This document shows positions 146 to 1,880 of a stretch of DNA of 9,739 nt, in pieces; position 1 is the stretch's first letter, and every line of letters begins with the position of its first letter. The position numbers and the translations under genes were made by a program. A model generated the notes under the pieces. The model was given only the letters and a program-made list of their open reading frames with translations. It did no database searches and had not been told where the DNA came from. The stretch is from Escherichia coli (GTDB taxonomy: Bacteria; Pseudomonadota; Gammaproteobacteria; Enterobacterales; Enterobacteriaceae), in NCBI RefSeq assembly GCF_003334815.1, contig NZ_QOWO01000062.1. One strand, given 5' to 3'.

Positions 146-984
146 GTGGTCACACTCTGCCATGTGTTCGGGGTTCATCGCAGCAGCTACAGATACTGGA
201 AAAACCGTCCTGAAAAACCAGACGGCAGACGGGCTGTATTACGCAGCCAGGTACTTGAACTGCATGGCATCAGCCACGGCTCTGCCGGAGCAAGAAGCAT
301 CGCCACAATGGCAACCCGGAGAGGCTACCAGATGGGGCACTGGCTTGCTGGCAGACTCATGAAAGAGCTGGGGCTGGTCAGTTGCCAGCAGCCGACTCAC
401 CGGTATAAGCGTGGCGGTCATGAGCACGTTGCTATCCCGAATCATCTTGAGCGACAGTTCGCCGTAACGGAACCAAATCAGGTGTGGTGCGGTGATGTGA
501 CCTATATCTGGACGGGTAAGCGCTGGGCGTACCTCGCCGTTGTTCTCGACCTGTTCGCAAGAAAACCAGTGGGCTGGGCCATGTCGTTCTCGCCGGACAG
601 CAGGCTTACCATGAAAGCACTGGAAATGGCATGGGAAACCCGTGGTAAGCCCGTCGGGGTGATGTTCCAGGCGATCAAGGCAGTCATTATACGAGCAGGC
701 AGTTCCGGCAGTTACTGTGGCGATACCGGATCAGGCAGAGTATGAGTCGGCGTGGAAACTGCTGGGATAACAGCCCAATGGAGCGCTTCTTCAGGAGTCT
801 GAAGAACGAATGGGTGCCAGCGACGGGCTATGTAAGCTTCAGCGATGCAGCTCACGCAATAACGGACTATATCGTTGGATATTACAGCGCACTAAGACCG
901 CACGAATATAATGGTGGGTTACCACCAAACGAATCAGAAAACCGATACTGGAAAAACTCTAACGCGGAGGCCAGTTTTAGTTGA
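146..984 (+). pseudogene. insO: IS3-family (IS911-like) transposase orfB, split by a frameshift into two ORFs (146..745 and 742..984); N-terminus additionally truncated by the IS30 insertion
   Basis: Both ORF translations read as one DDE transposase (…[12 protein letters not shown]… then …[22 protein letters not shown]…). In the frame of the second ORF the upstream sequence 673..741 translates [23 protein letters not shown], which continues the transposase core, so the frame change lies near 665..675. The symbol insO follows K-12 nomenclature from memory. Confidence 0.7.
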
Positions 985-992
985 CCACAACA
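957..992. repeat. Right terminal inverted repeat of the IS911-like element (about 36 bp)
   Basis: About 31 of 36 positions match the remembered IS911 IRL when reverse-complemented. The terminal dinucleotide is CA. Confidence 0.6.
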
Positions 993-1880
993 GACTACCT
1001 GAAGGGAGCCGCGGTCGCCTAGCAGTTGCAGTAGCAGGAGATCATCCAGCCGCAGTACAGGTCACGATGACTCTGGTTAATGATACCGGCTTTGACCCCG
1101 TATTTTCCGGCTCTATCGCTGAATCATGGCGTCAGCAGCCGTGCACACCATCCTATTGTTGTGACTGGGAGGCTGCCACCATGCTTCGCGCTTTCCCTCT
1201 GGCGAAAAAGGGAGAAGGACGGGCCCGTCTGCCTTCACTTTATGCCAGCTTCGGTAAGCTGGGTGAGACACCGACTCATAAAGATATCATTGATAACAAT
1301 CGATCCATCAACTGGCCTGTATAACGTGGCTGCCGGTGATTAAGAAAGCTGCACCTACCTAAGTAGTAGCAAACGCACACTTTTTAGAAAAATCGATGGT
1401 CAGAAACTGGATTAGCAATTCCGTTCCAGGGTTGCTTTTGATTTACGTTGGCGTCTGATCATTGATTTATCCTCAAAAGCCCAACCTCATTGGTAATGAA
1501 CCAGCTCCGTGAATGTCCGCTCTGGCACAGAGCGAAATTTTTTGATCTCCCCCCTGAAATCTAAACTTAGTCATGTCACGTTTTTGGGTTTCTAAAATTT
1601 TAACTTCGCGTTTTTCGTTGCCGTAAGGGTTATACAGAAATGTCCGTTAAGCAGAGTTCAAAATTGATTGCCGTGATCACGACTGGTTTGAAAGCCGCGC
1701 CCAAGCCTGTACAGCTCTGGTTTGCGTTGATTATGAACCTGTCAGCCTAAAGCAAGCGGATGGACGATGAGTATTGGTAATCTTTCAGAGTCCGGAAAAG
1801 TTCAGCCCCAGTCTGAACAGGCTTGCTGGCGCCAGTCCAGTTTCATTCAGTCGTGGTTTGGTTCTTACGGCCTGTGCAAT

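Follow-up and report, generated by a model that had tools for sequence, protein, structure and literature searches.

The 137-aa open reading frame between IS911 and fecE in Escherichia coli contains yjhV, a 3' remnant of a Klebsiella/Raoultella-type oxidoreductase gene

The window analyzed here is a stretch of 9,739 nucleotides of Escherichia coli DNA (contig NZ_QOWO01000062.1), to which all coordinates refer. Its first 77 nucleotides (1..77) are an IS30 end that is 100% identical to the end of the K-12 IS30D, and this is followed directly by the right-hand part of a defective IS911 of the IS3 family (78..992, plus strand; K-12 annotation, NCBIfam, and PGAP), the left part of which is interrupted by IS30. 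A frameshift near 670..745 divides the transposase gene orfB into two ORFs (146..745 and 742..984), both of which match the NCBIfam IS3 family transposase model NF033516 (E = 4e-50 and 2.5e-20, respectively). The K-12 annotation joins its insO fragments at window position 670, and PGAP labels orfB “IS3 family transposase, frameshifted”; no intact orfA/orfB transposase is present in this IS911 copy.

The element ends at 992, as the earlier note had placed it: the end of the K-12 IS911B-1 corresponds to 992, and homology to intact orthologues of the adjacent gene begins at 993. The right end reads ...GGCCAGTTTTAGTTGACCACAACA, with TG...CA tips and imperfect terminal inverted repeats. Specifically, the right terminal inverted repeat (957..992, plus strand) ends ...GTTGACCACAACA and matches the K-12 IS911B left end, TGAAGTGGCACACTGAATTTGGCCACC..., at 22/36 positions over 36 nt and at 18/27 in its best-matching part (966..992), as counted by eye between the K-12 left end and the reverse complement of the right end.

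Between this end and fecE lies the pseudogene yjhV (995..1324, plus strand), assigned by the K-12 annotation (b4286), by homology, and by the frame test described below. The K-12 feature table gives yjhV at locus 5805..6134, which is window 995..1324 at an offset of 4810; here it directly adjoins the right end of IS911B-1 and is separated by 556 nt from the stop of fecE, which is on the opposite strand. The name, which the earlier note had suggested for a small ORF at this position, is that of the K-12 pseudogene. Next to yjhV comes DNA from the 3' flank of the parent gene that has been retained with the remnant (1325..1544, plus strand). This flank ends in a terminator-like hairpin at 1518..1534 (CGCTCTGGCACAGAGCG) and then a T run (AAATTTTTTG), found by scanning; the fold energy of -10.8 kcal/mol (z = -1.26) is not exceptional. 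Further downstream, fecE (1881..2648, minus strand), the last gene of fecABCDE in the annotation of K-12 and other strains, is convergent with the remnant. No credible Rfam match to a structured RNA was found in 850..1950, and literature searches gave no relevant result for b4286 and none on the IS911-fecE junction.

Two overlapping ORFs described previously are present here. One is 137 aa long (911..1324) and has a further in-frame ATG at 1067, and the other, in a second frame, is 87 aa long (1080..1343). The first had been said to start inside the terminal repeat, which does not hold, as the inverted repeat covers at most 957..992 and ATG 911 sits 46 nt deeper inside the element, in the 3' end of orfB (742..984) but out of frame with it. 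The leading suggestion for this ORF, a C-terminal remnant of a gene disrupted by IS911, agrees with the translation of 995..1324, which corresponds to residues 140-248 of intact 248-aa oxidoreductases. A full-length homologue, the search for which had been proposed as a check, exists. The 3' end of an intact Klebsiella gene (L023:8001-8747) is identical to K-12 yjhV at 330/330 nt and to the window at 328/330, and the C-terminal 109 aa of the protein that this gene encodes, P0162, are identical to K-12 YjhV. Raoultella terrigena NBRC 14941 likewise carries an intact 248-aa gene, with 86% nucleotide identity across the shared segment.

Searched on its own, the remnant had no significant match, its one Pfam match being DRL_cat (E = 0.057) and NCBIfam giving none, because the Pfam models of the family cover the missing N-terminal half. 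A composite query, made of the R. terrigena N-terminus and the remnant, made the family clear. It matched 6,853 proteins at E<=1e-10, and most of the composite matches listed are 248 aa long, carry both PF03807 and PF03446, and align with the query over its entire length. The remnant retains ESWRQQPCTPSYCCD, which is the invariant S183-W-R-Q-Q-P..T-P.Y-C-C-D196 block (SWRQQPxTPxYCCD) of the family. Homology in the other frame had been named as a possible refutation, and the outcome of that test favors the frame of 911..1324: the pN/pS ratio against orthologues is 0.13-0.17 in the yjhV frame, the substitutions are mostly synonymous, and no orthologue has a stop in that frame. Altogether, these results support the earlier interpretation, of which both the leading guess and the gene name were correct.

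Three other observations on the sequence were considered and set aside. Of the 13 mismatches with contig L009, nine are concentrated in 997..1111, by the IS end, as a cluster of mutations after truncation would be; all of those states are found in the intact L023/P0162 allele, and the cluster is, by this comparison, an allele or recombination difference in L009. In that contig the intact gene is 556 nt from fecE, an arrangement that may be ancestral, or secondary if a plasmid-borne yjhV-fec module recombined into a resident intact gene. A dN/dS test of constraint on the remnant has no power, as only 0-2 substitutions have arisen after it diverged from the Klebsiella allele. Finally, the gene is frameshifted in the R. 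terrigena NCTC assembly, which is strain- or assembly-specific since the NBRC 14941 copy is intact.

The parent is a predicted NAD(P)H oxidoreductase of 248 aa that belongs, by homology, to the F420_oxidored/NAD_binding_2 family (PF03807, PF03446) and has an FNO/STEAP-like Rossmann fold. In its native setting in Klebsiella and Raoultella, the intact gene stands beside a divergently transcribed regulator gene of the HxlR family. Enterobacteria are not known to produce F420. Because of this, the name “F420 reductase”, given by homology, probably does not describe the true substrate of the parent. An AF2 model of the intact parent (pLDDT 94) places the truncation after helix 132-137 and before strand 148-153. 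The strands at 2-6, 25-29, 60-63, 87-89, and 123-126, i.e., 5/7 of those in the fold, are lost together with the invariant G7/G9/G12, and the GxGxxG Rossmann motif for NADP(H) is absent from the remnant, which begins at residue 140.

Within ORF 911..1324, only 995..1324 is genuine coding sequence. This part is far beyond chance, given its full-length alignment with thousands of 248-aa proteins. The segment 911..994 (plus strand), in comparison, is a 5' extension of 28 codons that passes out of frame through the 3' end of orfB and the inverted repeat and is not coding; the ORF reaches 137 aa because the frame happens to stay open for these 28 codons back into IS911. A run of 28 sense codons has a probability of approximately (61/64)^28 = 0.26, about one in four, and the open frame over 911..994 is a chance occurrence and unremarkable. 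The suggestion that the whole ORF is an IS-flank fusion, expressed from ATG 911 as 28 IS-encoded residues plus the remnant, draws on this open frame and on the fact that gene callers have reported a protein of 137 aa from many assemblies (P0003, with 366 member sequences). However, no Shine-Dalgarno sequence precedes ATG 911 (GAATATAATG), a start at this position is annotated neither by the K-12 curators nor by PGAP, and the 28 N-terminal residues have no counterpart in the protein matches to any intact orthologue, their matches being limited to near-identical ORF calls from the same IS911-yjhV junction. With an open run of this length arising by chance in about one case out of four, we regard such a fusion protein as extremely improbable. 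Less credible still is the competing ORF at 1080..1343 (plus strand) as a real gene, which we consider spurious. It is initiated by an ATG and spans 87 aa, but that ATG is owed to a single C-to-T change at 1081, where six intact orthologues checked by DNA have ACG, although the T is also present in L023, whose allele is the nearest to that of E. coli. Its frame contains two stops in the R. planticola orthologue, which has none in the yjhV frame, and the substitutions among orthologues are mostly synonymous in the yjhV frame instead. The ORF has no NCBIfam match, its sequence is found only in frameshift-hybrid proteins such as P0017 and P0034, and the frame test had already refuted it.

A third reading, also raised previously, is that of a real small gene: the 85-aa ORF from ATG 1067 (1067..1324, plus strand) would be translated into a product with its own role, e.g., a fragment that binds the partners of the parent enzyme or other proteins. 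PGAP calls this ORF in most E. coli genomes as WP_000177060.1 (“hypothetical protein” or “NAD(P)-binding domain-containing protein”), the ORF is intact in most carriers, and it retains the most conserved block of the family, SWRQQPCTPSYCCD. An AGGT located 4 nt upstream of ATG 1067 agrees with the Shine-Dalgarno consensus at 4 bases. A crosslink between AceF and YjhV is listed in one preprint on photo-crosslinking mass spectrometry (10.1101/2022.09.20.508727), and a genomic SELEX study assigned a constitutive sigma-70 promoter motif towards yjhV (PMC3946193). In K-12, that motif (CTGTCA-N16-TATAAA; Shimada) lies inside IS911 orfB at the equivalent of window 382..409; it is absent from the window, where the site is altered. 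None of the PGAP call, the AGGT, the crosslink, and the promoter motif shows function. ATG 1067 is not a start codon of the family but its internal Met163, with Met there in all close intact orthologues, and the fragment lacks the NADP site and 5/7 strands of a single-domain fold, such that independent folding is unlikely. Between 700 and 1100, our scan detected nothing resembling a sigma-70 site ahead of either ATG, and it gave no promoter-like site between 700 and 1262. A hybrid promoter at the IS end was also considered, with TTGACC at 981..986 as its candidate -35 hexamer in the terminal repeat, but GGGAGC stands 17 nt downstream, in the place of a -10 hexamer, and the scan found no such promoter. 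Conservation of the ORF is uninformative, since the DNA is identical to the intact Klebsiella allele, and its integrity is expected at this age because K-12 has zero substitutions against that living allele. In addition, some genomes carry further-truncated copies, frameshifted variants occur among database proteins, and the K-12 curators list the gene as a pseudogene. We therefore consider a functional small gene unlikely by a wide margin. Equally doubtful is that the remnant is not silent, i.e., that read-through transcription from the defective IS911, in which the sigma-70 motif is reported for K-12, and translation from Met163 (ATG 1067) yield an 85-aa fragment that retains the cysteine-rich SWRQQPCTPSYCCD block and interacts with cellular proteins, as the one AceF-YjhV crosslink reported would suggest; if true, this fragment would be a new small protein born from a pseudogene.

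The reading of 995..1324 as a truncated gene is further specified by the breakpoint and its distribution. Alignments to all intact loci start at 993-995, at the earliest one base after the IS911 end. On the other side, the homology shared with chromosomal loci of Klebsiella (L019-L022 and L023-L028) extends from 993 to 1533/1534, and it reaches less far in K. grimontii (to 1419) and in R. terrigena (to 1508). A tRNA that could serve as an island attachment site near the 1534 boundary was sought and found neither in the window nor in five related loci. Accompanying the genes for ferric-citrate (fec) uptake, the remnant occurs in 2,686 of the 5,426 complete E. coli genomes (about half), at >=80% of its length in 2,643 of them, with a few copies cut further. 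Among the matches listed, all E. coli copies have the same breakpoint, which is also that of fec-carrying plasmids of Escherichia and Klebsiella. In contrast, the 5' 415 nt of the intact gene were found in 0/5,426 of these genomes, none of which covers more than nt 720-1051 of it.

The idea of a disruption by IS911 needs one qualification. A gene remnant is indeed left, but a simple insertion is not what we see, as the 5' half of the gene does not lie across the IS and there is no target-site duplication. Specifically, the 3 kb upstream in three E. coli loci gave no match to the 5' half, the DNA left of IS911 is unrelated to the oxidoreductase gene, and no duplication of 3-4 bp is present: the right flank begins GAC, and the left flanks end ...GCT (K-12) and ...CTC or TGG (an O103 strain). 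These direct observations of homology, breakpoint, distribution, and missing parts are consistent with the following order of events. A Klebsiella/Raoultella-type gene, presumably from a Klebsiella-like donor, would have been truncated at 992/993, where the IS911 element now ends. The 5' 415 nt of the gene are missing along with its promoter and the regulator gene, so they were most probably removed by a deletion or rearrangement associated with IS911. The remnant and the parent 3' flank (to ~1534) lie beside fecE, with the same junction wherever the remnant is found in E. coli, and are probably neither expressed nor functional. As such, 995..1324 is with high probability yjhV, a non-functional 3' fragment of a Klebsiella/Raoultella-type oxidoreductase gene that was cut with IS911-associated loss of its 5' part. 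Because the K-12 copy is base-for-base identical to the Klebsiella allele and the breakpoint is the same in every examined copy, the sequences suggest that the fecE-flanking DNA of E. coli, whether chromosomal or plasmid-borne, derives through one IS911-associated event from a Klebsiella-like genome.

This finding has little general biological import: yjhV is a known, ordinary IS-truncated pseudogene that is already annotated as such in K-12, a textbook fragment of its kind. It does bear on annotation. WP_000177060.1, present in thousands of E. coli genomes, is a gene fragment and should be treated as a pseudogene. Likewise, the listing of yjhV as a “virulence-associated gene” in some surveys (PMC7750360) describes a gene fragment. 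The remnant is also a scar with a clear source for the origin of the fec region, given that the K-12 copy matches a Klebsiella chromosomal allele at every base.

The locus can be compared with four known systems. The nearest solved structures of the FNO/STEAP-type fold are 4huj (SMa0349), 2vns (the STEAP3 oxidoreductase domain), and 5n2i (the Thermobifida fusca F420:NADPH oxidoreductase), which match the intact parent model with Foldseek E-values of 1e-13 to 1e-10 and TM scores of 0.6-0.8 (sequence E 2e-9 to 1e-3). Their identity is only 25-27%, and these shorter structures lack the ~50 helical residues (199-245) by which the parent is extended at its C-terminus. With IS911 of the IS3 family, the window copy shares the TG...CA ends, the imperfect terminal inverted repeat, and the homology of orfB to IS3-family transposases. 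It differs in being defective, with a frameshifted orfB, a left part broken by IS30, and no flanking target duplication, and in the tip of its right repeat, which is ...CACAACA rather than the ...CACTTCA predicted from the left-end tip.

The intact 248-aa proteins of Klebsiella and Raoultella, annotated “NADPH-dependent F420 reductase” or “NAD(P)-binding domain-containing protein”, include P0162 (Klebsiella MULTISPECIES), WP_154951807.1 (K. grimontii), and the product of R. terrigena NBRC 14941 L014:7033-7779. The window differs from these loci in that residues 1-139, the promoter, and the divergent gene of the HxlR regulator are missing. Residues 140-248 are shared, being identical in P0162 and 92-97% identical in R. 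terrigena and the L009/P0037 allele, as are the stop codon and, in the closest Klebsiella loci, the 3' flank to 1534. Lastly, relative to yjhV of K-12 MG1655 (b4286, KpLE2 region), the window lineage has two substitutions of its own, at 1021 (synonymous) and 1280 (Glu to Lys), and its IS911 is interrupted by IS30 only, whereas K-12 also has an IS600 fragment in place of window 78..197. Both copies otherwise lie between fecE and the right end of IS911B-1, at the same offset coordinates and in the same frame, and share 328/330 nt.

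The 137-aa ORF on the plus strand at 911..1324, with its in-frame ATG at 1067, contains the already known yjhV pseudogene (995..1324), the 3' part left of a Klebsiella-type NAD(P)H oxidoreductase gene that IS911 truncated. The window is 99.5% identical to E. coli K-12 MG1655 over 198..9191 (offset 4810 to the K-12 locus). In the K-12 annotation, IS911B-1 ends at the equivalent of 992, and the pseudogene yjhV (b4286) occupies exactly 995..1324. Therefore, the gene name in the earlier note is correct, and the disrupted gene that it described at the IS911 end is real and was read correctly. 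PGAP annotates a shorter ORF in other E. coli genomes (1067..1324, WP_000177060.1), named either “hypothetical protein” or “NAD(P)-binding domain-containing protein”, and labels the IS “IS3 family transposase, frameshifted”. The transposase is frameshifted, since two plus-strand ORFs in different frames (146..745 and 742..984) each match the NCBIfam model for IS3-family transposases. Downstream of the remnant, on the opposite strand, lies fecE (1881..2648), followed by fecDCBA, fecR, and fecI.

When translated alone, the remnant (995..1321, 109 aa) gives no significant Pfam or NCBIfam match, and a protein search returned E. coli copies and a few longer overlapping proteins, including a 181-aa Raoultella terrigena protein with PF03807/PF03446 domains and the C-terminus ...LGLPEGSRGRLAIAVAGDHPAAVQVTMSLVNDTGF. 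We used a 248-aa composite, consisting of the N-terminal 139 residues of the R. terrigena protein and the remnant, which matched 6,853 proteins at E ≤ 1e-10 under source names that include “NADPH-dependent F420 reductase”, “NAD(P)-binding domain-containing protein”, and “predicted dinucleotide-binding enzyme”. Among the matches listed, most are 248 aa long and align end to end; by these alignments, the remnant spans residues 140-248 of the full-length, 248-aa protein. When 30 family members are aligned, the invariant G7, G9, and G12 (Rossmann GxGxxG motif) fall in the half that the remnant lacks, and the invariant S-W-R-Q-Q-P..T-P.Y-C-C-D block (183-196) falls in the part that it retains.

Intact orthologues locate the truncation precisely. 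The 248-aa gene of R. terrigena NBRC 14941 (L014:7033..7779) lies in DNA 86% identical to window 993..1508, and clustering at 90% identity groups P0037, an intact close relative, with many proteins from Klebsiella grimontii, K. oxytoca, and Raoultella. For the intact Klebsiella protein P0162, the C-terminal 109 aa are identical to K-12 YjhV; its gene (L023:8001..8747) matches K-12 yjhV at 330/330 nt and the window at 328/330, with the two differences (1021 and 1280) derived in the window's lineage. In all comparisons, homology to the intact loci starts at 993-995, right after the IS911 tip ...GACCACAACA. It extends beyond the stop codon, to 1419 in K. grimontii, 1508 in R. terrigena, and 1533/1534 in the closest Klebsiella chromosomal loci (L019-L022, L023-L028), whatever their downstream DNA. 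A motif scan placed a terminator-like hairpin at 1518..1534, ending at this boundary and leading into a T run; the fold energy of the hairpin is not exceptional (z = -1.26). In its native setting, the parent gene always has a gene for a 122-aa HxlR-family regulator upstream of it, in divergent orientation.

Several observations concern the surroundings of these loci. The orthologous gene appears frameshifted in R. terrigena GCA_901420665.1 (L004:4001..4890) and, in two metagenome contigs (L005, L006), is broken into ORFs of 112 and 143 aa, while it is intact in the R. terrigena type-strain genome; the broken copies reflect either assembly errors or independent decay. In Klebsiella strains with the yjhV-identical allele (L023..L028, around 9560..16747), the 1534-equivalent boundary is followed by a P4-like island encoding Phage_GPA primase, AbiJ_NTD4, and NERD proteins. 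E. coli O103 has an AbiJ-NTD4 gene as well, a short way upstream of its IS911 (L001:419..1243); comparison of the two regions detected no DNA similarity (blastn, E ≤ 1e-10). Between the end of Klebsiella homology and the fecE stop, the window has about 345 nt without an annotated feature (1535..1880), in which we found no Rfam match; its two small ORFs (1640..1750 and 1767..1892) match no family either. A “yjhW” is named together with yjhV in an older listing of K-12 transcription units (PMC4448311); it is absent from the current K-12 feature table.

Read in the 995..1324 frame, orthologues differ mainly by synonymous substitutions (pN/pS 0.13-0.17). The 87-aa plus-strand ORF at 1080..1343, in another frame, has an ATG that depends on T at 1081; the region reads ACG in all six intact orthologues checked by DNA, and the Klebsiella allele closest to E. 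coli has the T too. The R. planticola gene (76% identical) has two stops in the 1080..1343 frame and none in the yjhV frame. Therefore, the check for homology in the other frame, by which the earlier note would have been refuted, favours the frame of 911..1324. The 5' part of that ORF is IS911 sequence (911..994), namely the out-of-frame 3' end of orfB and then the terminal repeat. This extension has no counterpart in intact orthologues, and the only matches to its 28 residues are near-identical ORF calls at the same IS911-yjhV junction. By chance, 28 consecutive codons would stay open with a probability of about 0.26, and ATG 911 has no upstream Shine-Dalgarno sequence. The inverted repeat covers at most 957..992; the start of the ORF therefore lies outside it, contrary to the title of the earlier note. 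Altogether, the long ORF and its competitor are by-products.

ATG 1067 is the internal Met163 of the family, with AGGT 4 nt upstream. A consensus scan found no promoter-like site in 700..1262, and TTGACC in the repeat (981..986) has no -10 hexamer downstream at the right spacing. The yjhV fragment is without its cofactor site, its promoter, and its regulator. In the literature, YjhV is among the AceF partners in a photo-crosslinking proteomics preprint (10.1101/2022.09.20.508727), a genomic SELEX study assigned a constitutive sigma-70 motif, CTGTCA-16-TATAAA, towards yjhV (PMC3946193), and mastitis-isolate surveys list yjhV beside fec as “virulence-associated” (PMC7750360), which is due simply to co-occurrence with fec. 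None of these shows a yjhV function. The SELEX motif lies within IS911 orfB in K-12 (window-equivalent 382..409) and is altered in the window, from CTGTCA-N16-TATAAA to TTGCCA-N16-TATAAG. This change falls in a divergent stretch of orfB (247..472).

Of the 47 mismatches that separate the window from K-12, 24 lie in that 226-nt stretch, where divergence is about 10% (elsewhere, about 0.25%), which suggests a patch acquired by recombination or gene conversion from another IS911 copy. Window 1..77 is the end of an IS30, with IS911 sequence from about 78 onward; K-12 (L003:3126..5802) has the same IS30 plus an IS600 fragment in place of 78..197, and in the O103 strain IS911 is uninterrupted. These nested states suggest an order in which IS911 came first, IS30 second, and IS600, together with a deletion, last. 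At the left junction in O103 (L001:1885..1900), the IS911 left tip TGAAGTGG occurs twice in tandem (TGAAGTGGTGAAGTGG).

The truncation is shared widely. When the intact gene with its upstream region (L009:1..1051) was compared with 5,426 complete E. coli genomes, 2,686 gave matches, none above about 32% coverage, and all those listed begin at nt 720, the breakpoint. The remnant itself occurs in the same 2,686 genomes, over at least 80% of its length in 2,643 and at 99% identity or more in 2,573 records; a few copies are shorter still, one retaining only query 163..332 (window 1155..1324). The same breakpoint is found in the 13 fec-carrying Escherichia and Klebsiella plasmids. The 5' half of the gene is absent across IS911 in three E. 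coli loci, and no target-site duplication flanks the element. The simplest reading is that a single IS911-associated deletion or rearrangement was inherited and spread with fec. In L009, a short contig derived from a metagenome (Logan SRR31535658), positions 305..2925 hold an intact oxidoreductase gene, the same 556-nt E. coli-type spacer, and then fecE/fecD, at 99.4% identity to window 993..3198. Nine of its 13 mismatches fall within window-equivalent 997..1111, where its allele is K. grimontii-like and E. coli agrees with the P0162 allele. L009 is therefore either a near-ancestral arrangement or a later recombinant, in which a truncated yjhV-fec module may have integrated into a resident intact gene.

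The AlphaFold2 model of intact P0037 is confident (pLDDT 94.2, pTM 0.92) and consists of a single alpha/beta domain followed by C-terminal helices. In this model, the breakpoint falls between helix 132-137 and strand 148-153, and five of the seven strands are lost. The solved structures nearest to the intact parent, in both sequence and fold, are SMa0349 (4huj), the STEAP3 oxidoreductase domain (2vns), and the Thermobifida fusca F420:NADPH oxidoreductase (5n2i).
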